DNA from: Candidatus Heimdallarchaeum aukensis
GTDB lineage: Archaea > Asgardarchaeota > Heimdallarchaeia > Heimdallarchaeales > Heimdallarchaeaceae
Direction: 5' to 3'
DNA: 64,000 nt
Assembly (NCBI GenBank): GCA_021513695.1
Contig: CP084166.1
Location: 736,001-800,000, forward strand
The notes under the pieces are model-generated. The model did not search any database, had not been told where the DNA came from, and saw only the letters and a list, made by a program, of their open reading frames with translations. Each line of letters starts with the position of its first letter. The stretch's first letter is position 1. This document shows positions 1,619-40,541 of the stretch, one piece after another. Both the position numbers and the translations under genes were made by a program.

Positions 1619-3271
1619 TTGAGTTCAAGTTTAATATCTGCGGATACAGCACCCATTTTTTTCGACATAACAATCATTTCTCCCAACACTTGTCCAGCGC
1701 GAAACCAATGGGAACCTCTATTAGATCAGATCTTACCCCAAATAGGAATAAATGTTACTCATGTATATATTAACTGGGGCTTTATCTCTGAAAGAACATG
1801 GAATTATCCAGTAGGTGAAGAAGGATATGAAGATCATATACCATCCTATGAAAAAGGAGGATACGACATACTTACAATTGGATGGGGGTGGGATTTTGAT
1901 TGGGATCCAACAGGATTATTCGATTCAGCTTCAATTGTCCCAAATGGAGATAACTTTTACCAGTATAACAGTTCAGAATTTGACAATACTCTAGAAGAAT
2001 ATTTATCAGAATTTGAACTCTCAAAAAGAATAGAAAAAGCAAAGGAGCTTCAATCAATATTATATAATGATTTACCTTCAATTGCTGTTTTCTATCCTCG
2101 AGAAAAGAGTTTCTACTTACATGGTGTCTCCAATGTTGATTTTGAATTACTAGAACAGGGTATTCCCAGAACAGAATATTGGAAAAACAGTGAAAAGAAT
2201 AATATAACATATATGACATATTATGATTTTTATTCTCCTAACTTGTTTCTAAAAGATAATTATATTGAAGAAATAATGGGTAATATTATTTTTTATGGAC
2301 TTTTTGAGAGAGCACAAAATACACATTTGTATGAACCAGTTATTGCTCAGAATTATTCTATATCAGAAGATAAGAGAATTATCACTGTTGATATTAACCA
2401 TGGCGCTTATTTTAGTAATGGAGATCCTGTAACTGCTTATGATGTAGATTTTAGTTATGAGCTGTTTATGACACCTGGAGTACGTGATTACCTTTATTCA
2501 TATTACAATACTTATGATTTACTAACAACATACTTTGAGAACAATGATAGTATTCGAGTTATAGATGAGGATACTGTTCAATTCGAATTCAAAGAACCTT
2601 ACATTTTCTGGCCATACTTATTAAGTATGGATATTGTAAACAAGAAGTTATTTGAAGAATATATTGAAGATAATGGTTACAACTTTGATACCAATAATCA
2701 AACATTGTTTATTGGAGCAGGTCCATTCACTTTAAATGAAACTACAGATTATAATTTAGAAAATCAAACAGTAACTTTACATAAAAATGAATACTGGAAA
2801 TTAACTGAGAAAATCAATCTTGATTCTATTATCTTTCAATGTAAAATCTATAGTAACGATGCAACAGATAAAATTGAAAATAAAGAAATAGATATTATTG
2901 ATGATCTTTACAGATATTTAGATATTCTAGTAAACAACACAGAGTGGGAAAGCACAGAAATTAGAACAACAGGATACACAGAATTAACGATCAACATGCG
3001 CCATCCAATTTTAGGAACAGGAGAACTTACACCTCTCGGAACTGCAGAAGCAGCTAATAATATCAGAAGAGCAATAAGCCATTCTATAAATAGAGAACAA
3101 ATTATAGAAGAAGTGTTAGAAGGGCTGGGTAAACCAGGAGTTGTACCTTTATCAGAATTGTGTATAGGTTTTGATAGTACTCTTACACCTTACTCCTACA
3201 ATATCACATTAGCTAAATCTTTAATGGAAGAAGCAGGATACAGTTTGAGCATATCATTAAAAAAGCTGTAA
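1619..3271 (+). CDS. extracellular solute-binding protein, family 5 (peptide/nickel ABC SBP-like); true start probably ATG 1566 with a frameshift in an A9 run
   Basis: Residues resemble SBP_bac_5 segments (YNSSEFDNTLEEYLSE..RIEKAKELQSILYNDLPSIAVFYP and ...GDPVTAYDVDFSYELF...). The called start is TTG and the product has no signal peptide. ATG at 1566 plus one extra base in the A9 run (1574-1582) would give MKIKKKHIKELTILFSLFLSSSLISADTAP..., a typical signal peptide. Confidence 0.5.
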   Translation: MSSSLISADTAPIFFDITIISPNTCPARNQWEPLLDQILPQIGINVTHVYINWGFISERTWNYPVGEEGYEDHIPSYEKGGYDILTIGWGWDFDWDPTGLFDSASIVPNGDNFYQYNSSEFDNTLEEYLSEFELSKRIEKAKELQSILYNDLPSIAVFYPREKSFYLHGVSNVDFELLEQGIPRTEYWKNSEKNNITYMTYYDFYSPNLFLKDNYIEEIMGNIIFYGLFERAQNTHLYEPVIAQNYSISEDKRIITVDINHGAYFSNGDPVTAYDVDFSYELFMTPGVRDYLYSYYNTYDLLTTYFENNDSIRVIDEDTVQFEFKEPYIFWPYLLSMDIVNKKLFEEYIEDNGYNFDTNNQTLFIGAGPFTLNETTDYNLENQTVTLHKNEYWKLTEKINLDSIIFQCKIYSNDATDKIENKEIDIIDDLYRYLDILVNNTEWESTEIRTTGYTELTINMRHPILGTGELTPLGTAEAANNIRRAISHSINREQIIEEVLEGLGKPGVVPLSELCIGFDSTLTPYSYNITLAKSLMEEAGYSLSISLKKL

Positions 3272-3701
3272 CTGCTCCTGAATTATAGCCTTTGACCTTT
3301 TTCTGAAATACTAAAAGGTGCCCAACTATATTTACAACGTTAAAAATAATCATTGCAAATCCAAGCCAAGGAGCAATAGAACTAATCAATGCAGCAAAAA
3401 CAAAAATAGCCCAAACACCCAAATTTATCACAACCACCACAACATCATTTATAGGTTCAAAACCAGAAGAATCTTCAACAGCAAAAACAGTTTTATAATT
3501 AATAAATTGTTTAAAACCACCAGGAAAAACATATTCTTCAAATTCGTGAAGCATTAAAACTGCTAAATTCAGCCAATAAAGTAAAGAGAGCTTGTTGGTA
3601 AGACTGCAATTTTTCCAAAGAAAAATAACTATAAAAATAATAACGATTGCAAAAAATCCTCCCACCTTTGGCCAAATTGTGTTAAATTTTTTAAGTTTCA
3701 T
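3213..3701 (-). CDS. small integral membrane protein (4 predicted TM segments)
   Basis: Hydrophobic helices alternate with short loops. The antisense ORF 3318..3557 is low-complexity K/N-rich and was rejected. Confidence 0.4.
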   Translation of the reverse strand: MKLKKFNTIWPKVGGFFAIVIIFIVIFLWKNCSLTNKLSLLYWLNLAVLMLHEFEEYVFPGGFKQFINYKTVFAVEDSSGFEPINDVVVVVINLGVWAIFVFAALISSIAPWLGFAMIIFNVVNIVGHLLVFQKKVKGYNSGAVTAFLMICSNCILLLPLKI

Positions 3702-3932
3702 GAGGATTTTAATAAAAAAGGTTATTTAAAGATTCTTTATTAAAAAATAATTTTGTAATTTGCAAAGCCGTAGTGCTTGAATCAACACTAATTAGGAGTT
3801 CAAAAAAACCATAAATATTTTTCTAAAAATCGCTACTATAAGAGTGCAAGTTGAGAAATAGGAGAAAAACAGTTAATAAAATATTTTTTTTATTTAACAG
3901 TTTAAAAAAAGAAAAATAAGAAATTAAAAAAA

Positions 3933-5750
3933 TTATAATCTTCTCTTAAAGAAGTCTAAAAATAATTTTAGAGTTCTAATCCTCATACTTATATCAGAAT
4001 ATGCACCATGCCCCTCTTCTTTAAATTCAACATATTCAAAGGTTTTTTCTCCTTCTTTACCTTCTTTCCAGCCTAATTCAATAAGTTTGTCTCTGAATTG
4101 TCTACTCTCATCTACAGGACATCTAGGATCGTTTACACCATGAATCATTTGAATTGGAGCTTTGATTTTCTCGATATGTGTCAAAGCTGATCTATCTTCC
4201 CATAATTCTTTATTCTCTTCGTATGTTCCCATGTGTTGATTAAGGAAAAACTTGAAATGTGGTTGAGATTTATCATACATTGTTTTTAGATGTGATATAC
4301 CTATCCAAGCTGAACCTGCTTTCCATCCTGCGTCCGCATATTTTGTTAATTGCAAGAAAGTCATATATCCTCCATAAGAACCACCGAAAACACCTATTCT
4401 TTCATGGTCAACGTATTCTAGTTTTTCTAGGTATTTTTTGGCGTATACAACATCTTTTGCATCTCCTCCACCCCAATCCATTAGGTTCATTTCTTGAAAC
4501 TTCTTTCCATAACCTGTACTTCCTCTGATATTCGGGCATAGAATAACAAATCCTTCGTGGGCAAATACTTGAGACATTATATCAAACATTCTGTAGTATT
4601 GACCAGTAGGTCCTCCATGAACATGTACTAAAGCAGGATATTTCTTTCCCTTTTCTATCTTTGGAGTAGTAAGAGTAGCAGCTATTTCCATTCCATCAAA
4701 GGAAGGATACTTGATATATTGCATGTCATAAAAGTCTTCTTCAGTAAGATCAGTTTGAGGAGGAATAATTATTTTTTCTTCGTCAGTCTCTAAATTATAC
4801 ATTGCTAGGCTTGTAGGCATTTTGGGTGCACTTCTAAGATAAATCAGATATTTATCGTTTAGAGCAAACTGAGTATAGTAAGCTATTCCTTCAAAGTCTA
4901 GTTCTTTTTTGTCTCCAGTCTCTAAATCGTAAATTATAGGTCTCATTTCTGCTTCTTTATTTTGAAGAACTGCTAGTTTCTTTCCATCCTTAGAAAATTC
5001 AACGGCGAACTCTTCATATTTTCCATCACTTAACCATTTTACTTCTTTTGTTTCTGTGTCAAATACTCCTGCTTGGCTTACACCTGTACTGTCGCTTGTA
5101 ACCGCTAGATACCGGCCATCTTCAGAAATATCAGAGAACTGATCATTTGAAACATCTGAAACTCTAAATACTAAATCAGTTTCACTTCCATCAGCTTTAA
5201 TAGCCCAAACATCAGAATTTTTTATATTATAGGTATCATTAAAATTGTAATAAATCCAACCATTTTTACTCCAGCTAGCTTTTCCCCAAGTAGGTTTATC
5301 ATGAGCTGTAAGTTGCTTGACCTCTTTACTATCTAAATCCATAATGAACAAGTTAAGTTGTCCATTTCTCGTAGAAGCAAAAAGAAGACTTTTTCCATCA
5401 GGACTTATTGCATGAGGATATTCTTGCGCTTCTGGAGTTTCAGTTAATTTAATACTCTCTTTTGTTTCTATGTTAAATAGGAAAATATCATGCATTTCAT
5501 TTCCATCTTTGTCTCTGGTATAGGTAATATGTTTACTATCTTTTAACCATACATACCCTGCGCGTATGGCTCGAGGAAGTTCTCCATCTGTAACTTGTTT
5601 ATAATCTAATGATTTTAAATCTAAAATATAAAATTCATTTCTTTTTGTTTTATTCCAATAAAATCCAAGCAAATTTTTTTCTTTATTTGTTTTTAACATC
5701 ATCATGCTTGGTATTGAAGCTAACTTTTCTACCGTAATTTTCTTGGTCAT
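3933..5750 (-). CDS. S9 family serine peptidase (prolyl oligopeptidase / acylaminoacyl-peptidase type)
   Basis: The N-terminal half is beta-propeller-like. The C-terminal alpha/beta hydrolase carries GGSYGGY (nucleophile elbow GxSxGG), a downstream Asp/His and HGxxD. ATG start. Confidence 0.85.
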   Translation of the reverse strand: MTKKITVEKLASIPSMMMLKTNKEKNLLGFYWNKTKRNEFYILDLKSLDYKQVTDGELPRAIRAGYVWLKDSKHITYTRDKDGNEMHDIFLFNIETKESIKLTETPEAQEYPHAISPDGKSLLFASTRNGQLNLFIMDLDSKEVKQLTAHDKPTWGKASWSKNGWIYYNFNDTYNIKNSDVWAIKADGSETDLVFRVSDVSNDQFSDISEDGRYLAVTSDSTGVSQAGVFDTETKEVKWLSDGKYEEFAVEFSKDGKKLAVLQNKEAEMRPIIYDLETGDKKELDFEGIAYYTQFALNDKYLIYLRSAPKMPTSLAMYNLETDEEKIIIPPQTDLTEEDFYDMQYIKYPSFDGMEIAATLTTPKIEKGKKYPALVHVHGGPTGQYYRMFDIMSQVFAHEGFVILCPNIRGSTGYGKKFQEMNLMDWGGGDAKDVVYAKKYLEKLEYVDHERIGVFGGSYGGYMTFLQLTKYADAGWKAGSAWIGISHLKTMYDKSQPHFKFFLNQHMGTYEENKELWEDRSALTHIEKIKAPIQMIHGVNDPRCPVDESRQFRDKLIELGWKEGKEGEKTFEYVEFKEEGHGAYSDISMRIRTLKLFLDFFKRRL

Positions 5751-8577: not shown

Positions 8578-10533
8578 CTAAAACTCAATAAATGGTAAGA
8601 AAATAGATACTTTCGTTCCAACATGATGAATGCTATCTATAAATATTTGTCCATCATGTAATTCTACAAGATTTTTTGTTATATACAAACCTAACCCTGT
8701 TCCTTCACTTTTTTCAGCTTCATCTGTTCTGAAAAAGGGCTTGAAAACATATGGGAGATCATGACTAGGGATACCAATTCCATGGTCTTGAATCTGAATG
8801 AGTAATCCTTTTCTGTTATCAGGATTATATTCACCTACATAATCTTTGATAACTGTAACTTCGATTTTAGAATTACTTAAAGAATATTTTATTGCATTAT
8901 CTAAAACATTGGATATTATCTGCTTAATTCTTTTTGGATCACCAAAATACTGAATATCTTTTGTTTCGAATTTCTTTTCTAACCTAATTTTTTTGCTTTT
9001 TAATTGTTCTTCAAAACTTCTTATTGTCGAATTAATGTTTCTAATAATATTAAACTTCTTTTTCTCTACTTTGAATCTATTATTTTCTATTTTAGAGACT
9101 ACAAGTAAATCTTCAATTAATGTTGTTAAAAGATCTGCACTTTCTTCCATTACTTCCAAGGTAGAGAAAATCTTTCTTTTAGGTAATCTTTCCCAGTATT
9201 TTTTAAGAAATTGAATACTCAAACTTATAGATGTAATGGGAGTTCTTAATTCATGACTGACAGAAGAGATAAAGTTTTTTCTTAGTTTATCCAAAGTAAG
9301 AAAGGGAGTAATATCTTGAAATTCTATTAGAGCACCTATAAAACTCCCAGAAGAGGTGATATTTACTCCTGAGACCTGAATAAAGAAATTTTCAGACAAC
9401 TCAAATGTATCACAGACTTTTTCTTTTTCTATTATTAATTCTTTAATAAAGGAGAATAAAGGGTCGTCTTTAAACTTTTCAGAAAAGATATTTAATGATA
9501 ATAAAGGTTCTTTATCTTCGGGATAGAGAACACGATAGAATTCTTCAAATTTCTTATTAAATAGACTAAAATTCCCTTCATCATCAATCAACAACAAACC
9601 AGGTGAAACTGTTTCAAAAATTGCTTCAAGTTTTAGTTTCTCTTCTAAAAGTTCTTCATTTTTTCGCTCTACTATCATTGATAATTCAGAGCTTGTTTCT
9701 TTTAGCTCTTTTTCTCTTTCTACATGTTTAGTAATATCTGTTGCAACCCCTAAAGCTGCTATCTCACCACTTGGTAATTTAATAGGAATCTTTCTTACTT
9801 CAATTGTTCTTTTTTCTCCAAAGGCATCAGTAAAAGAGCTTGTAGTTTTTATCCTACTTTTAGTATCTATTACTTTCCTATCATACTTTAAGAAATAATC
9901 AGTTTCACTCTTTACAGGTTGTATATCATGCTGAATAGAACCCTCAATCTCGCTTATTGGTAAATTAAAACGGTCTGCTAAAGCTTTGTTAGCTAATAGA
10001 AATCTCCCTTCTTCATTTTTTACAAAAATCATTTGTGGAACTTGATCTATTACTTCTCTTAAGATATTTTTATTGAATTCGAGTTCCATAATTTCATCCA
10101 ATTTTGATGAAAAAGAAGAAGCTACAGCAACATGACAATCATTGGACGAGTTAAAAATCACTTTTAGTTTTACAGGTAGTCTTTTTCCTTCTTTTGCAAG
10201 TAAAAAAGTTACAAAAGTAAAAAAACTTTTTTTTGAATCTGATAACTTTAAATAATATTCCAAATTTTTTTCTTTGTCTTTCTCTTCGAAATACTCATTT
10301 ATTTTTTTTTCAAGTATGATAGACTTCTTAACTCCTATAAGATCTTCAGCTCTTTTGTTTATATAAAGAATGGATAGATTGTTATTAAAAACAAAAATTG
10401 CTTCTTCTAAACTATCAAAACAAGATAGAATATCTTCATATTTCAGCTTTAATCCATCTACTCTAGCAGATTCGTTTTCTGTATTTTTATTTTTTTTATT
10501 TGAAGATACATCATTGGAAAAAAGATTACTCAA
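8578..10533 (-). CDS. sensor histidine kinase with multiple PAS domains
   Basis: Three PAS-like segments are followed by HisKA (SHELRTPITSI) and an HATPase_c N/G-box region (NAIKYS, DHGIGIP, GTGLGLYI). TTG start sits 3 nt after the response-regulator stop. Confidence 0.85.
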   Translation of the reverse strand: MSNLFSNDVSSNKKNKNTENESARVDGLKLKYEDILSCFDSLEEAIFVFNNNLSILYINKRAEDLIGVKKSIILEKKINEYFEEKDKEKNLEYYLKLSDSKKSFFTFVTFLLAKEGKRLPVKLKVIFNSSNDCHVAVASSFSSKLDEIMELEFNKNILREVIDQVPQMIFVKNEEGRFLLANKALADRFNLPISEIEGSIQHDIQPVKSETDYFLKYDRKVIDTKSRIKTTSSFTDAFGEKRTIEVRKIPIKLPSGEIAALGVATDITKHVEREKELKETSSELSMIVERKNEELLEEKLKLEAIFETVSPGLLLIDDEGNFSLFNKKFEEFYRVLYPEDKEPLLSLNIFSEKFKDDPLFSFIKELIIEKEKVCDTFELSENFFIQVSGVNITSSGSFIGALIEFQDITPFLTLDKLRKNFISSVSHELRTPITSISLSIQFLKKYWERLPKRKIFSTLEVMEESADLLTTLIEDLLVVSKIENNRFKVEKKKFNIIRNINSTIRSFEEQLKSKKIRLEKKFETKDIQYFGDPKRIKQIISNVLDNAIKYSLSNSKIEVTVIKDYVGEYNPDNRKGLLIQIQDHGIGIPSHDLPYVFKPFFRTDEAEKSEGTGLGLYITKNLVELHDGQIFIDSIHHVGTKVSIFLPFIEF

Positions 10534-10535
10534 TA

Positions 10536-11441
10536 TTAATCACCTTGAATAGGTAGGACTGTAAGTATTTCTTCCCAAGCTTTCTTTATATCCCATTTTT
10601 CTTCATTTTTAACCTTATTTGAATAAGGAGCTAGTATTTCTTCCAATCTTTTAGTAATTATATAATCAATCCTTGGAGCAATAACTACAAGCATAAATGG
10701 TATTTGCTGAGATAAGCTTTCAAAATCCTCATACGCATCAATGTATATATAACAAGCCATACCTATATTTTCTAAAAACAAAGGCACTCCCTGGGGATTT
10801 GTTACTTTTAATTCTCCATATACAGAGATAATAGTTTGAAAGATTTGAACGCCTAAACTATCTAATTCAATTTGTTGTTCTATTTTCTTGGGAAAATAAT
10901 CTACTGGCTGAGGGCCCAGCACATCATGCCATTTAATTAAAAGCAAAAAAACAGAATCTTTTGAATAACTATATATACTATCATGAGCCATTAAATTCTG
11001 ACTTAACTCTAAAGTTATTTTCTTCTTTAGTTCTTCTCTAATTTGATAATTTAATTTTCTTTTAGCTAACTTTCCTTCAACTATTGCTATCAAATCTTCT
11101 TCTTTGAAGGGTTTAATTATATAATCATCTATTCCCAAAGATTTACCATATCTTACTGACTCTGGGTCACTTTTAGCAGTAAGAAAAACAAAAGGAATGT
11201 CAAAAAATCTTTCATCTCTTGAGATTTTTTCATATAGAGAATAACCATCCATTCCTGGCATCATTATATCACAAAGAATAAGATCAGGGGGTCGAGTTAG
11301 ATTTTCTAACAAAGTTAATGCTTCATCTGCACTCTGGGCTAAAACAGGAAAGTAGTCATACATAGATAAAATACTGTCTAGTAAATACAAGATTTGCTTA
11401 TTATCATCAATAATTAAAATCGTTCCTTTCAAATTATCCAA
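10536..11441 (-). CDS. response regulator: REC domain plus ~170-aa C-terminal domain of unknown function
   Basis: REC motifs ILIIDDN, the phospho-acceptor D in LILCDIMMPGMDG, and K in DDYIIKPF. The C-terminal half is not an HTH; it may be roadblock-like. TTG start. Confidence 0.8.
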   Translation of the reverse strand: MDNLKGTILIIDDNKQILYLLDSILSMYDYFPVLAQSADEALTLLENLTRPPDLILCDIMMPGMDGYSLYEKISRDERFFDIPFVFLTAKSDPESVRYGKSLGIDDYIIKPFKEEDLIAIVEGKLAKRKLNYQIREELKKKITLELSQNLMAHDSIYSYSKDSVFLLLIKWHDVLGPQPVDYFPKKIEQQIELDSLGVQIFQTIISVYGELKVTNPQGVPLFLENIGMACYIYIDAYEDFESLSQQIPFMLVVIAPRIDYIITKRLEEILAPYSNKVKNEEKWDIKKAWEEILTVLPIQGD

Positions 11442-33238: not shown

Positions 33239-34219
33239 GTGATGCGTTTGAAAATAATCATTACAACAGAAACTGGAGAATTGCTATTTTCATATGATTC
33301 CTTTACTGAAAATAGAAAATACGATAACGTACTGATTACTGGGTTGATTTCTGCAATTGTGGTTCTATCCAATGAAGTAGTTAGTTCTTTTCCAAGAGAA
33401 ATCGAATTTGAAGGAAAAATTCTTTATTTTTATAGAGAAAATGAATTTATAGCAGCTTTACTTGCAGATATAGAGTCACCTTTTAATGGTAGTATTCTTC
33501 CAGTTATTTTAGGAGAATTTAAGAAAGTACAAGAAAAACATGGCTTTCCTACACATAAAGCAATGAGATATGACAAAGAAATTGCTTATGCAGTAAAAGA
33601 TTGTTTAGCCATGTATTTAGCAAACATGCAGAAAAAGATGGTCAAATTATTAGATGACACAGATGTAGCGGATTACAATTCAATTATAAAAGTTAAAGCT
33701 GTAGCTAAAGATTTTTTGAAAGATGCAGCTCAATTTTTGCCTATTGATTTAATTTGCAGAATGATTCCTGATGGAATGGATAAAATTCTTTATAGTTTGA
33801 TTGTAGGTATTCCTATTGTAATTTCAGGAAACAAAGATATTGTTGAGCAGTTAATTAATAGTCTAAGAATGCTTTGTCCTACAAGAATTTTAAAAATAAA
33901 ATTTTGGTCAGACAAATATATTACAGGATATGACATTATAGGAACAAATGACATAAAAATAGTTAAACCTTCACTTTATCAATTGTACATTGATATTAAT
34001 AACGGAATAGTTTTAGGGGGTAAATCATCACAATATTTCAAAGATATTGAATGTCAAATATGTAATCTAAATACTGTAGAAGCTTTTAACTTCATAAGAA
34101 GCGAGTTGAATTGGATTTTCCAAGCATTCGAAGAATTAAAAATAGATGTTTTTTCTAAAAAATCACTACCACTTGAAAAACAGCTAATTTTGTTTGAACT
34201 TTTAAAAAGGTTACATTAA
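33239..34219 (+). CDS. hypothetical protein with N-terminal longin/roadblock-like fold
   Basis: Residues 1-100 show a beta-alpha-beta-beta pattern (KIIITTETGELLFSY / ITGLISAIVVLSNEV / GKILYFYRENEFIAALLAD). The remaining ~220 aa are unassigned. Confidence 0.4.
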   Translation: MMRLKIIITTETGELLFSYDSFTENRKYDNVLITGLISAIVVLSNEVVSSFPREIEFEGKILYFYRENEFIAALLADIESPFNGSILPVILGEFKKVQEKHGFPTHKAMRYDKEIAYAVKDCLAMYLANMQKKMVKLLDDTDVADYNSIIKVKAVAKDFLKDAAQFLPIDLICRMIPDGMDKILYSLIVGIPIVISGNKDIVEQLINSLRMLCPTRILKIKFWSDKYITGYDIIGTNDIKIVKPSLYQLYIDINNGIVLGGKSSQYFKDIECQICNLNTVEAFNFIRSELNWIFQAFEELKIDVFSKKSLPLEKQLILFELLKRLH

Positions 34220-34278: not shown

Positions 34279-34599
34279 GTGATGATTGTGGAGAAAAAAT
34301 CTAAAACTACTATAAAAAAATGGATTTCAAATTTAGATATCAGAAAATTAAGTTTTAGAGGAAAACTCATAATAATTATTTCATTTCTCCTTATCAGTTC
34401 TGCAATCATAATTAATTACATCAATAACTTTCAAGGAAAGATAGTAAAATATTCTGTTTGGATTCTTTTCGGTTGGTTTTTTCTCATAATAATTTTCTAT
34501 ATATCAATTAAACTACTCTCATTCACAGTTCTACGAAATAAGCAACAAAAGTTAAAAGAAGAAATAGAAAGTGATAAATTTGATCAGAGTAAAGATTAA
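34279..34599 (+). CDS. small 2-TM membrane protein (106 aa)
   Basis: GTG followed by ATG start. Two hydrophobic helices. The stop overlaps the next gene. Confidence 0.4.
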   Translation: MMIVEKKSKTTIKKWISNLDIRKLSFRGKLIIIISFLLISSAIIINYINNFQGKIVKYSVWILFGWFFLIIIFYISIKLLSFTVLRNKQQKLKEEIESDKFDQSKD

Positions 34600-34900
34600 A
34601 CCAAAAATTGCACACGTTGTTTTTGAAATTATAGCACTACTTGCAGCCATTGCAGGTTCTCTTTACATTGCTTCTATTGCTAATAAAATTGTATTATGGA
34701 TTTTTGAGACAATAATTGTCATTGTTCTGCTTTTCTTTGGTGGAAAGAGTATATACAATAAAATGAAACCATTTTATGTTTCAGCTCCCTTAAGAGAAGA
34801 CATGATAAAGGATCAAGAAGGTAGAAAGAGAATAATAACAGAACCTACAAAAAGAGGATTAACCAATGAAGACAAAGAAATTCAAAAAAATGACGAATAG
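34571..34900 (+). CDS. small 2-TM membrane protein (109 aa)
   Basis: GTG start overlaps the previous gene's end. Two hydrophobic helices and a charged tail. Confidence 0.4.
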   Translation: MINLIRVKIKPKIAHVVFEIIALLAAIAGSLYIASIANKIVLWIFETIIVIVLLFFGGKSIYNKMKPFYVSAPLREDMIKDQEGRKRIITEPTKRGLTNEDKEIQKNDE

Positions 34901-35096
34901 AGAATATTCAAGAGTCTATGCTACTGTTTTTCTTTTAATAATTAGTTTTCCTGTTGTTTTTATATCACAAAAATATATAGTTCCTTTTTTAGGAAATTAT
35001 GAAACAATTTATTGGTTTAGCGTTTTTTTATTACTTTCTTTTACTTTTCCCTTATTTAATTCAATTTTTTCAAAGATCATAGATAAAGAAAAATGA
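34866..35096 (+). CDS. small 2-TM membrane protein (76 aa)
   Basis: ATG start overlaps the previous gene's end. Basic N-terminus and two helices. Confidence 0.4.
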   Translation: MKTKKFKKMTNREYSRVYATVFLLIISFPVVFISQKYIVPFLGNYETIYWFSVFLLLSFTFPLFNSIFSKIIDKEK

Positions 35097-35405: not shown

Positions 35406-36782
35406 TCATTCTATAACTTTCTTTCTTTTAGCATATTGTATCAGCATTTTAATGGCATAAGCAGCTTCTCGTGGATTTAGAAATATGGGACTACTTTCTT
35501 TTTTGGCTATTCTCTTAGATTCATTTAACAAATTTCCACTCATGAATATGGGAATTATAGGTTTCTTTCTACCTGTTTCATTCCACGCTCTAATAACTCC
35601 TTCATAATGTTCTGATGTGGTCATTCCTAAAAATGTGGGTATTACTGCAATTGGAACAACAATATCAATGTTAGGATCTTCTAGCATTGCTTTAGTTACT
35701 TCATAGTACTCTTTTCCAGTTGCTCCTGCTATCATATCCAGAGGATTAACCTTTTTTACTAAAGGAATCAAAAAAGGATCAATTTTCTCTTTGAACTCTT
35801 CAGTAAATGTGGCTAGTTTTAGTCCGAAATCATCCGCAAAATCACTGAACATCACTGCACTTCCTCCACTATTTGTTAGTACTCCTATTTTTTCGCCTTT
35901 AGGAAGTGGAAGAAATGAAAAAGCTTTAATTGCAGCAATGTAATCTGTGATACTTTCACACATTATGGCTCCTGCTTGTTTAACTGCTGTTTTTAGAGAA
36001 CTATAGTCTGTAGCCATAGAACCTGTATGGCTTGAAGCTGCTCCCATTCCAGTAGCAGTTCTTCCTCCTTTAAGTACAACAACGGGTTTATCTTTTGCTA
36101 CTTCATGTAGTTCTTCATAAAATACTCTTCCATCAACAACATTTTCTAAATAAATAGTTACCACTTTTGTGTTTTCATCTTCCTTATAGAACCTTAAAAC
36201 ATCTGTTAAATTTATGTCTGCCATATTTCCTAAATTTGCAAATTTAGAGAATCCTAATCCTTGCCAAACCATTTCATACAAAACTATTGCCCCAACTGAA
36301 CCTGATTGTGTAATCATGCTTACATTTCCTTTAGGTGGGGTTTGAATGAATGATGCATTCATTCCTATATCTACATTTTGTATTCCTACACAGTTAGGTC
36401 CTATTAACCTTATTCCTGCATCTTTCAATTTTTGAGATAACTGTTCTTGCACTTTTCTTCCTTCTTCATTAATTTCTGCAAAACCAGCAGTTACGATAAT
36501 AATCCTCTTAACTTTTTTCTCTATACATTCATCGACAACATGAGGAACAATCTTTGCAGGAACAAGTAAAATCGCTAAATCGATCTCATCTGGTATTTCT
36601 AGTACAGACTTATATGCTTTTAATCCTCCAATAGTTTCAGCTTTAGGATGAACAGGACACAATTTTGCTTTCAGATCTTTATTCTCCATTAAGTTAGCTG
36701 TTACAGCATGTCCAAACTTTTTTTCATTATCTGTCGCACCAATAATTGCAATAGAATCTGGATAGAAAAACTTCCTAGTCAT
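35406..36782 (-). CDS. acetyl-CoA synthetase (ADP-forming) alpha subunit / CoA-binding + succinyl-CoA-synthetase-like domains
   Basis: N-terminal CoA-binding Rossmann (SIAIIGATDNEKKFGH) and SCS-alpha-like flavodoxin domains. A phosphohistidine-loop context is present. Confidence 0.75.
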   Translation of the reverse strand: MTRKFFYPDSIAIIGATDNEKKFGHAVTANLMENKDLKAKLCPVHPKAETIGGLKAYKSVLEIPDEIDLAILLVPAKIVPHVVDECIEKKVKRIIIVTAGFAEINEEGRKVQEQLSQKLKDAGIRLIGPNCVGIQNVDIGMNASFIQTPPKGNVSMITQSGSVGAIVLYEMVWQGLGFSKFANLGNMADINLTDVLRFYKEDENTKVVTIYLENVVDGRVFYEELHEVAKDKPVVVLKGGRTATGMGAASSHTGSMATDYSSLKTAVKQAGAIMCESITDYIAAIKAFSFLPLPKGEKIGVLTNSGGSAVMFSDFADDFGLKLATFTEEFKEKIDPFLIPLVKKVNPLDMIAGATGKEYYEVTKAMLEDPNIDIVVPIAVIPTFLGMTTSEHYEGVIRAWNETGRKKPIIPIFMSGNLLNESKRIAKKESSPIFLNPREAAYAIKMLIQYAKRKKVIE

Positions 36783-36872: not shown

Positions 36873-37835
36873 TTATTGGTTTATATATCCGTGCTCAATT
36901 ACACACTTATCAGCGTCTAGATTTAAAACACTTATAGTATACTTTTTGATGTCATCATAACTTGTACTCGTCTTATCTATAAGATCAGCGAGAATATCAA
37001 GCAACCTCCTAGCTTCCTCGTGACTTTCATCAGTTTTTATTACCAATCCAAAGATATGAGATTGTGAAGAACGGAGAATGAATTTATAGTCTTTAGACAT
37101 GATAAACTGAATAATATTTTGTTCATTGAAAGTTTTTTTTGCAAAAGTTTGTATAGCTGAGAGAAAACCAGAATAGAGAGATATTTTATCTGAAAGTTTT
37201 TTCTTTGAGATACTTAAAATTGGCAATCCATCTCTATCTGCAAGTAAAAAAGACTCAGGAGTAACTTTTCTTTTTTGAATAAGTTTAGATAACTGATTTT
37301 GTAACCAATATAGGACAGAATCAAAATTTTCTCCAGTTTGCATGCTTATCTTAAAAAATTGAAAAGAGGCATTTGGAATCATAGCGAGATTATATATTTC
37401 CACGGTATTGATAATTTCTTCCAGGTTCATACTATTTTCTAAATCTGCTTTGTTACACAGAAATAGAATTAGAAACTCATCTCCGTTATCTTTTAACTTT
37501 ATTGACTTCCAAAATTCTTCTTTTGCTTCAAGTAATGATTCTCTATCTGAAGAATCAATGATAAAAATTATCCCATAAGCTAACTTAATGTAATTTTCCC
37601 AGATAGTCTTTCTAAAAACTTCTTGTCCCCCTAAATCAAAAATATTTACTTTTAGATCAAATAGTTCATATTGTTCTAACTGAACCCCCATAGTTGGTTT
37701 AGGACTAGTGAATTTTCCTGTGAGAATTCTGTTAACAAAAGTAGTTTTTCCAGCATTAGGTAAACCTAAAATTACTAAAGGAATTCCTTTTTTCTCAAAA
37801 GAAAGTAGTTTTTCAGATATTTTCTTCTTACTCAA
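36873..37835 (-). CDS. Arf/Rag(Gtr)-like small GTPase fused to a C-terminal roadblock/longin-like domain
   Basis: G1 GLPNAGKTT; switch I KPTMGVQLE; G3 FDLGGQEVF....W.NY (Arf/Rag-type DxGGQ); G4 NKAD; G5 ISMQTGENF. The ~140-aa C-terminal domain shows a beta-beta-alpha-beta-beta-beta-alpha pattern (FLLADRDGLPILSI...IFGLVIKTDE...LLDILADLI). Confidence 0.75.
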   Translation of the reverse strand: MSKKKISEKLLSFEKKGIPLVILGLPNAGKTTFVNRILTGKFTSPKPTMGVQLEQYELFDLKVNIFDLGGQEVFRKTIWENYIKLAYGIIFIIDSSDRESLLEAKEEFWKSIKLKDNGDEFLILFLCNKADLENSMNLEEIINTVEIYNLAMIPNASFQFFKISMQTGENFDSVLYWLQNQLSKLIQKRKVTPESFLLADRDGLPILSISKKKLSDKISLYSGFLSAIQTFAKKTFNEQNIIQFIMSKDYKFILRSSQSHIFGLVIKTDESHEEARRLLDILADLIDKTSTSYDDIKKYTISVLNLDADKCVIEHGYINQ

Positions 37836-39104: not shown

Positions 39105-40541
39105 ATGAAAATAATGAAAGAAGGATTAACTTTTGATGATGTTCTTCTTATTCCTAAACGTTCCTCTGTCCGCTCTAGACGAGAAATAGATACTTCTACA
39201 CAGTTATCTAAGAATATTAGATTGAACATCCCTATAGTAAGTGCAAATATGGACACAGTTACAGAAAGTGCGATGGCTATTGTTATGGCACAACAAGGAG
39301 GAATAGGAATCATACATCGATTTATGCCTATAGTTGAACAAGTAAACGAAGTTAACAAAGTTAAACGTGCTGAAATGATAAGAATTGACAATCCTTATTG
39401 CTTAAAGCCTGAAACCTCGTTACAAGAAGCTAAAGAGTTTATGAAAGAAAAAGGAATATCAGGATTGCTCATTACAGATAACAATAACATTTTACAAGGA
39501 ATTCTTACTTCACGAGACATTAAATTTACAGAAGATGAAAATGTTTTAGTAAAAGAACTAATGTCAACAGATCTTATTACAGCAAGACCAGATATTTCGA
39601 TTGAGGAAGCAAAAAATATTCTAAAGAAGAATAGAATTGAAAAACTTCCCCTTGTTGATGAAAAAGGAGTAGTAAGAGGACTAATAACAGCAACAGATAT
39701 TATCAAGGCTAAAATATTACCTAAAGCAAGTAAGGATTCTAAAGGAAGGTTAAGAGTAGGTGCAGCAATAGGAGTAGTAGGAGATTATTTAGAAAGAGCA
39801 GAAGCCCTTTATAATGCTGGAGCTGATGTTCTAGTTTTAGATATCGCACATGGTCATTCAGATTTGGCAATAAATGCAATAAAAGAAATTAGAAAGAATC
39901 TTGGAGATGTAGAATTAATTTCGGGAAATGTTGCTACAGCAGAAGGAGCAAAAGATCTAATTGAAGCGGGTAGTGATGGAATTAAAACTGGAGTGGGGCC
40001 AGGTTCAATATGTATAACAAGAGTAGTGGCAGGAGCTGGTGTTCCACAACTTACAGCTATAATTGAAACATCAAAAGTAGCTAAAGACTATGGGGTGCCT
40101 GTAATCGCAGACGGAGGCATTCGTACTTCAGGAGATATTACTAAGGCTATAGCTGCAGGAGCACAAACAGTTATGATTGGAAGCTTACTAGCAGGAACTG
40201 AAGAAAGTCCTGGAGCAGCTATTCTAAGACATGGGAGAAGATATAAAGTTGTCAGAGGAATGGCTTCTCTTGGAGCTACATTAGGTCGAGAAGCAAAAGA
40301 AAAGAAAGGAAGTTTTGACGAATTTGATTTAGGTTCTGTGGTTCCAGAAGGAGTAGAAGCAATGGTGCCATATCGTGGTTCAGCAGTAGACGTATTGAAT
40401 CAGCTAGTAGGTGGATTTAGAAGTGGTGTAAGTTACTGCGGAGCTTCTTCGATTCCAGAAATGCAAGAAAAAGCAGAATTTATAAAAATAACCTCTGCAG
40501 GAAGAAAAGAATCAACATCACATGATGTAGAATTAATTTAA
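39105..40541 (+). CDS. guaB: IMP dehydrogenase with CBS pair
   Basis: [13 protein letters not shown] start, a CBS pair at residues 100-210, the catalytic loop [20 protein letters not shown] and GGIRTSGDI. Confidence 0.9.

Follow-up and report, generated by a model that had tools for sequence, protein, structure and literature searches.

The gene at 36873..37835 (minus strand) in a 64,000-nucleotide stretch of the Candidatus Heimdallarchaeum aukensis genome, referred to here as the window, raises the question of which family of eukaryote-like GTPases its product belongs to and what is contributed by the domain fused behind the GTPase. The initial annotation read it as an Arf/Rag(Gtr)-family small GTPase joined to a roadblock/longin domain. 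How the eukaryotic membrane-trafficking and nutrient-signaling machinery originated is a question in which the small GTPases and the longin/roadblock proteins of Asgard archaea have a central place. Additional domains "such as longin" have been mentioned for Asgard Arfs (Zhu 2025, PMC11914678), Arf-type fusions in Asgard were also noted by Vargova 2024, and the PDB already contains Loki Rag-like GTPase structures and that of an Asgard longin dimer (8yl2, 9m28, 8yqg). The protein described here, the Arf-longin GTPase, is an uncharacterized addition to this published architecture class, and its details will not surprise a specialist. In this closed Heimdallarchaeial genome an Arf-type switch and a longin platform are permanently linked in one chain, which makes the protein a clear-cut case and an argument that Arf-type GTPases and longin domains cooperated before eukaryotes. 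The value lies in the details, namely about 60 orthologs, a Sar1-like His in most of them, an invariant EEARR motif amenable to mutagenesis and a neighborhood that nominates a DENN-like regulator; these open the way to direct biochemistry and leave the overall picture unchanged.

The gene and its product

The gene is complete in the ORF list, with a TTG start and a TAA stop at 36873..36875, and encodes 320 aa. The deposited protein UJG41462.1, a "GTP-binding protein" of Candidatus Heimdallarchaeum aukensis, is the same product (100% identity over 100% length). The gene identifies its source as Heimdallarchaeum, and the initial annotation was right to look to it for the origin of the DNA. G+C content is about 30% across the whole window. 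The ortholog alignment contains 51 full-length sequences of 46–92% identity, all about 315 aa long. An open reading frame with complete G motifs and a folded C-terminal domain, as first proposed, is confirmed by the translation, the deposited match, conservation and structural models; 36873..37835 is a genuine conserved gene and a chance ORF is excluded.

The full-length AlphaFold2 (AF2) model, based on the 51-sequence ortholog alignment, has a mean pLDDT of 84.9 and a pTM of 0.86, from which the G domain and the longin are predicted to be packed against each other in a defined arrangement. Between the last helix of the G domain and the longin lies the six-residue linker QKRKVT (aa 187–192; 37260..37277, minus strand), placed by AF2 secondary structure and conservation, and P193 directly after it is invariant in the 51 orthologs. 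A Kyte-Doolittle hydrophobicity scan of the GTPase found no membrane helix.

An Arf-family G domain

The G domain (aa 15–186; 37278..37793, minus strand) was delimited from Pfam Arf, PDB phmmer and Foldseek matches. Its G1–G5 nucleotide-binding motifs are all intact, and every motif listed in the initial annotation (P-loop, switch-I T, DLGGQ, NKxD, SxxTG) is present by translation on the minus strand: the P-loop GLPNAGKT (aa 24–31; 37743..37766), switch-I T48 (37692..37694), DLGGQ (aa 67–71; 37623..37637), NKAD (aa 128–131; 37443..37454) and SMQTG (aa 164–168; 37332..37346). Residues G24, G29, K30, T48, D67–G70, N128, K129, D131, S164 and G168 are invariant among the 51 orthologs, as are W79 and Y82, while residue 71 varies: it is His in 48 of the 51 (94%) and Gln in three, the H. 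aukensis protein and its two nearest relatives. DLGGH is the Sar1-type form of the motif, and SRbeta likewise has His at the catalytic position. Position 66 is Phe; the corresponding residue of Arf1 is W66.

The Pfam Arf profile (PF00025) matches the protein with an E-value of 1e-35 and 123.2 bits against a cut-off of 22.3, spanning aa 8–181 and profile positions 6–173 of 174. Ras (54 bits), Roc (49) and SRPRB (41) score lower, and Gtr1_RagA (PF04670) gives no match at E<=1. The best relatives in a PDB phmmer search are GerdArfR1 and HodArfR1 (8oun, 8oum, 8oul, 8ouk; E 1e-27 to 1e-24), followed by Arf1, with no Rag among the best 60 sequence matches. When the full model was compared with the PDB by Foldseek, the best 50 matches consisted entirely of Arf, Arl or ArfR chains, again with no Rag among them; the single AF2 model resembles GDP-form as well as GTP-form Arf structures. 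As the best Pfam, PDB phmmer and Foldseek matches are all Arf-type, the G domain is assigned by profile and model comparison to the Arf family and not to Rag/Gtr, and the "Rag(Gtr)" part of the original label has to be given up. That ArfRs are the best PDB matches hints at a placement in the ArfR clade as opposed to ArfL, an Asgard group separate from ArfR (10.1101/2024.02.28.582541).

The closest G-domain relatives are thus the Asgard ArfR/AArf proteins (HodArfR1, GerdArfR1), at 27–34% identity and a Foldseek E-value of 6e-14, which have the same G motifs and likewise belong to the class Heimdallarchaeia. ArfRs of solved structure consist of a single domain, about 180 aa in length, and bind membranes through an N-terminal amphipathic helix, whereas the Arf-longin GTPase has a polar N-terminus and an added longin; it further differs in F66 and, across its family, in the His/Gln at the catalytic position.

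The N-terminal 14 residues (MSKKKISEKLLSFE; 37794..37835, minus strand) form a short, polar and poorly conserved helix without Gly2, located at residues 3–10 in the AF2 model, and F13 pairs with F13 of Arf1 in the phmmer alignment. Over the N-terminal 12 residues the hydrophobic moment is 0.34 and the mean hydrophobicity -0.22, compared to 0.52 and +0.47 for the Arf1 helix. Neither an Arf-type amphipathic helix nor a myristoylation Gly2 was found at the N-terminus, which is polar, of low moment and variable in sequence. Among 100 Asgard ArfRs screened, 45 have an amphipathic N-terminal helix (10.1101/2024.02.28.582541). Because the N-terminus is polar and lacks Gly2, membrane contact mediated by a partner appears likelier than contact through an Arf-style helix.

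The C-terminal domain is probably a longin

The C-terminal domain (aa 193–320; 36876..37259, minus strand) was delimited from the AF2 models and conservation. Its predicted elements are β1 (195–200), β2 (205–211), α1 (218–234), the three strands β3–β5 within 242–267 (242–246, 250–256 and 260–267), α2 (272–288), α3 (293–303) and an extra strand (311–315). The same β-β-α-β-β-β-α-α order with a short terminal strand is obtained in the full-length model and when the domain is modeled alone (pLDDT 83.8). In these models the order is that of a longin; a roadblock would start with a helix, and neither model of the domain shows the roadblock order (α-β-β-α-β-β-β).

Structure comparison points in the same direction, as the nearest solved folds are longins. 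With the two values of each comparison in brackets, Sec22b (12.3; 105) comes first, followed by AP-3 sigma (11.6; 109), VAMP7 (11.6; 108), TRAPPC4 (11.5; 106) and Ykt6 (11.2; 111), and then by MK-D1 Roadblock2 (10.7; 84), the RagA C-terminal domain (10.0; 81) and the S. pombe ortholog of LAMTOR2 (9.9; 98). A Foldseek PDB search with the isolated domain did not separate longin from roadblock, all matches having E-values of about 1e-3, and PDB sequence searches with the domain gave no match. The best Pfam longin match is Fuz_longin_1, which falls just below threshold (E 1.9e-5; 25.3 bits vs a cut-off of 26.1), and MAPKK1_Int and Robl_LC7 are further sub-threshold matches. On the models, the domain is very likely a longin. 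The longin half of the fold first proposed is thereby supported by element order and fold ranking, the roadblock half is contradicted by the element order, and the broader claim holds that a small GTPase of eukaryotic type carries at its C-terminus a domain from the longin/roadblock superfamily.

Two conserved features stand out in this domain: an invariant G203-x-P205 just before β2 (37221..37229, minus strand), and EEARR at the start of α2 (aa 273–277; 37005..37019, minus strand), in which E274, R276 and R277 are invariant. The fold is shared with the longin GTPase regulators (Mon1-Ccz1, Fuz and HPS1; FLCN-FNIP, C9orf72-SMCR8 and NPRL2-NPRL3; TRAPP C1/C4), which in eukaryotes form dimers that bind GTPases of the Arf, Rab or Rag type. 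The points of comparison between these and the Arf-longin GTPase are the nearest Pfam model, Fuz_longin_1, the G-x-P before β2 and the conserved arginines.

Distribution of the Arf-longin fusion

The close family comprises about 60 clusters at 90% identity, the named ones being Heimdallarchaeaceae, Heimdallarchaeota or "Asgard group", and a scan of GTDB species genomes returned 37 loci, 36 of them labeled Asgard or archaeon. Relatives of 315 aa with 31–36% identity are found in Promethearchaeota, Hermodarchaeota and another Heimdallarchaeota chromosome; two of these distant proteins were scanned with Pfam and both score as Arf. When a profile of the longin domain only was searched against 1.84 billion representatives, 133 clusters were obtained, with named matches from Hel-, Heimdall-, Odin-, Jord- and Freyarchaeota. 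A Pfam scan of 97 of the 133 gave 39 TPR-longin proteins, 13 further Arf-longin fusions (50%-identity clusters) and nine matches to Fuz_longin_1, the further fusions coming from Hel-, Heimdall- and Odinarchaeota. By these sequence searches the Arf-longin fusion is an Asgard-wide architecture and not peculiar to the H. aukensis genome, and the expectation that relatives are limited to Asgard archaea is borne out for all named relatives.

The remaining locus, the weakest of the 37, is labeled "uncultured bacterium" (L043, CAUQMY010000017.1) and matches with 30% identity over residues 16–136 only (E 4e-5). This match is confined to the G domain and so does not demonstrate, at the level of sequence, an Arf-longin fusion outside archaea. 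The nearest longin relatives without a GTPase combine an N-terminal TPR with a C-terminal longin in 600–760 aa (P0099, P0110, P0113 and others), an architecture of which no discussion was found in the literature examined.

A second GTPase clade, clade B, is represented by paralogs (L002, L008, L009, L025) that have a separate genomic location, and both clades are present in some MAGs. A pattern scan of the complete H. endolithica genome found one GTPase copy; with a single copy there, an obligate heterodimer of two paralogs would not be general. In L025 (929..10510) the clade-B paralog is one of five Arf-like GTPase genes, the four other tblastn matches (36–40% identity) lying within 10 kb on both strands.

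Gene neighborhood

Of 33 close loci, about 27 share the gene order epimerase, Arf-longin GTPase, ADP-forming acetyl-CoA synthetase (ACS)-like gene, small genes, a gene for a 326-aa protein on the opposite strand, and radical SAM, an order retained despite divergence of the GTPase to 47–56% identity. The ACS alpha-like gene (35406..36782, minus strand; Pfam CoA_binding, Succ_CoA_lig and Ligase_CoA_2) lies immediately downstream of the GTPase gene in the window, and the same placement, directly downstream on the same strand, recurs in about 27 related loci. The adjacency is conserved, and a functional link is possible. The stop codon of the GTPase gene is closely followed by oligo-T runs and the ACS-like start is preceded by a TATA-like AT box, which suggests that the two genes are probably transcribed separately, both being weak evidence in DNA of 70% A+T; co-transcription is disfavored to the same limited extent.

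The Loki/Hermod Arf-longin relatives have another conserved neighborhood, which includes a 330-aa protein. This protein and the 326-aa protein are unrelated (hhalign probability 0.2%), and the idea of an Asgard-wide conserved partner was rejected.

Candidate partners in the window

The 326-aa protein (33239..34219, plus strand) was proposed in the initial annotation as a longin/roadblock-like candidate partner. It has no Pfam annotation above threshold, and its family is confined to Heimdallarchaeaceae. Among the 244 window ORFs it is the best non-self match to the GTPase longin profile, to which its N-terminus is weakly similar (hhalign E 7.4e-4, probability 26%). At aa 177–232 it gives a weak signal for the folliculin-C/DENN core. 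Folliculin_C, a DENN-type profile, is detected below threshold in 22 of 30 family members, with a best E-value of 9.8e-5 at these residues. A longin-DENN-like protein is therefore plausible from sequence, as a lead; the proposal keeps the weak hhalign match and the conserved gene order on its side, and has against it that the signals stay below curated thresholds.

The 326-aa gene is followed by three overlapping small genes (34279..35096, plus strand) for proteins of 106, 109 and 76 aa in the ORF list. Each has about two hydrophobic, putatively membrane-spanning segments by Kyte-Doolittle analysis and none has a Pfam match. Small genes of the same size class occur at the same place in loci L001, L004 and L006, and the three genes probably form one operon with the 326-aa gene.

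The profiles used detected no roadblock gene in the window. The C-terminus of a REC protein (10536..11441, minus strand) had also been put forward as a possibly roadblock-like candidate partner; Pfam detects only the receiver domain, hhalign finds no similarity to the GTPase longin profile, and a homolog search with the C-terminal half gave no match. The candidate was dropped after the negative hhalign result. A PAS-HisKA-HATPase kinase gene (8581..10539, minus strand) lies directly downstream of the REC gene. As a separate observation, the region after the receiver domain (aa ~160–301) contains "FLLLIKWHDVLGPQPV", with a W-x-D...G-P string before the predicted second strand that recalls the WD and GP motifs of GAP longins. 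Both motifs are known from GAP longins of the C9orf72/SMCR8/FLCN type and from longins of Heimdallarchaeia (PMC12290439), and the REC protein C-terminus could be a longin-type output domain of a two-component system.

Proposed mechanism and alternative explanations

The best explanation as a whole, and on balance a probable one, is a soluble two-domain switch in which an Arf G domain is combined with a longin platform for pairing or docking. The GTPase would cycle between GTP and GDP forms, with hydrolysis expected to depend on residue 71, Gln here and, as in Sar1 and SRbeta, His in most orthologs, and probably to require a GAP in trans. The longin would be a built-in platform that pairs with a second longin, either its own copy or a separate longin protein, and such pairing may assemble or dock the switch onto partners, making it a counterpart in layout of the Rag roadblock domain. 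Longin and roadblock dimers serve Rab, Rag, Arf and MglA GTPases as platforms (PMC10933270; PMC8213707), and it is by analogy to these that longin dimerization is proposed; any particular partner is a candidate.

A different possibility is self-regulation: either in cis or between the two chains of a homodimer, the longin would act on the G domain as a built-in GAP resembling the longins of FLCN, SMCR8 and NPRL2 or as a GEF/GDI-like clamp resembling those of Mon1-Ccz1 and TRAPP, through the invariant R276/R277 or the G203-x-P205 turn. The high pTM of the model implies a defined interdomain contact and could alternatively reflect cis action of the longin on the G domain to which it is fused. 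The invariant EEARR is consistent with such a role, as is the G-x-P before β2, which occupies the GP-motif position of GAP longins (PMC12290439). In C9orf72-SMCR8, longin pairs cup Arf1 and an arginine finger is supplied (PMC8213707), and the top Pfam longin match of the domain is a Fuz/Mon1/HPS1 GEF-type longin. However, the conserved arginines lie outside the loop expected for an FLCN-type arginine finger, and self-regulation, taken as a whole, is considered unlikely.

The candidate partners suggest another possibility, a module made up of the GTPase, the 326-aa longin/DENN-like protein and the three small membrane proteins. The 326-aa protein would then serve as GEF or GAP and as membrane anchor, and the module would parallel in simple form the Arf-C9orf72/SMCR8 or Rag-folliculin pairs. 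This is in keeping with a gene block that outlasts such divergence of the GTPase, with the confinement of both families to Heimdallarchaeaceae, with the recurrent Folliculin_C signal and the weak resemblance of the 326-aa N-terminus to the GTPase longin, and with the operon-like overlap and paired hydrophobic segments of the small genes and their products. However, every signal in the 326-aa protein is under the curated thresholds, the GTPase and 326-aa genes converge, with about 2.6 kb between them, instead of sharing an operon, and the conserved block includes housekeeping genes, so that shared ancestry alone could explain the order; the 326-aa neighbor is also missing beside the clade-B paralogs and the Loki/Hermod relatives. 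Such a module has a small chance of being correct, and there is only a slim one that a membrane-anchored longin-DENN GAP/GEF acting on the Arf-longin switch is a Heimdallarchaeaceae-specific module and a prokaryotic forerunner of the Arf-C9orf72/SMCR8 or Rag-folliculin systems. If the module were real, a tie to acetyl-CoA or energy status through the ever-adjacent ACS-like gene would be possible.

A true Rag/Gtr homolog, in which paralogs heterodimerize via the C-terminal domain, dock on a Ragulator-like roadblock scaffold and report the nutrient state, is very improbable. The layout is shared with eukaryotic Rag/Gtr, a G domain followed by a C-terminal α/β platform of the longin/roadblock superfamily, and this much of the Rag-like architecture first proposed stands, while membership of the family does not. 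Eukaryotic Rag/Gtr proteins differ in having a Gtr1/RagA G domain and a roadblock, whereas no obligate paralog pair is evident for the Arf-longin family in the genus. Two tests that define a Rag homolog failed: there is no Gtr1_RagA match beside an Arf score of 123 bits, and element order and fold ranking make the C-terminal domain a longin and not a roadblock. In addition, the full model has no Rag in its best 50 structural matches, the complete H. endolithica genome has one copy, and the profiles used brought up no roadblock gene in the window.

A closer comparison is offered by GTPases of Loki MK-D1 that carry a sequence-based Arf annotation and a fused longin or roadblock, through which they are predicted to dimerize (PMC10933270, Tran 2024). 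The architecture class is shared with the Arf-longin GTPase, yet the lineage and subfamily are different, relatives outside Heimdallarchaeaceae having at most 36% identity. The MK-D1 GTPases are also classed as Rag-like by structure (PMC10933270), whereas the Arf-longin G domain is structurally nearest to Arf. An SRbeta-SRX-like pair in one chain, acting in protein targeting in the way that SRbeta-GTP sits on the longin-fold SRX of SRalpha, is hardly credible.

Further observations at related loci

In L004, from a Heimdall-group MAG, a gene at 2980..4074 (minus strand) encodes a 364-aa product with PF01233 (N-myristoyltransferase) and weak GNAT matches. It lies about 2 kb away from the Arf-longin ortholog, a curious vicinity as this GTPase family lacks Gly2. 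A gene of about 910 aa lies between the epimerase and Arf-longin genes in L001 (2924..5671, minus strand) and L006 (2830..5559, minus strand); it has no Pfam match and is missing from the window. The IMP dehydrogenase of the window (39105..40541, plus strand) is 478 aa long and free of an intein, and that of L005, from a related Heimdallarchaeaceae MAG (1922..4702, minus strand), is 926 aa long with Hint, intein-splicing and LAGLIDADG matches and thus contains an intein.
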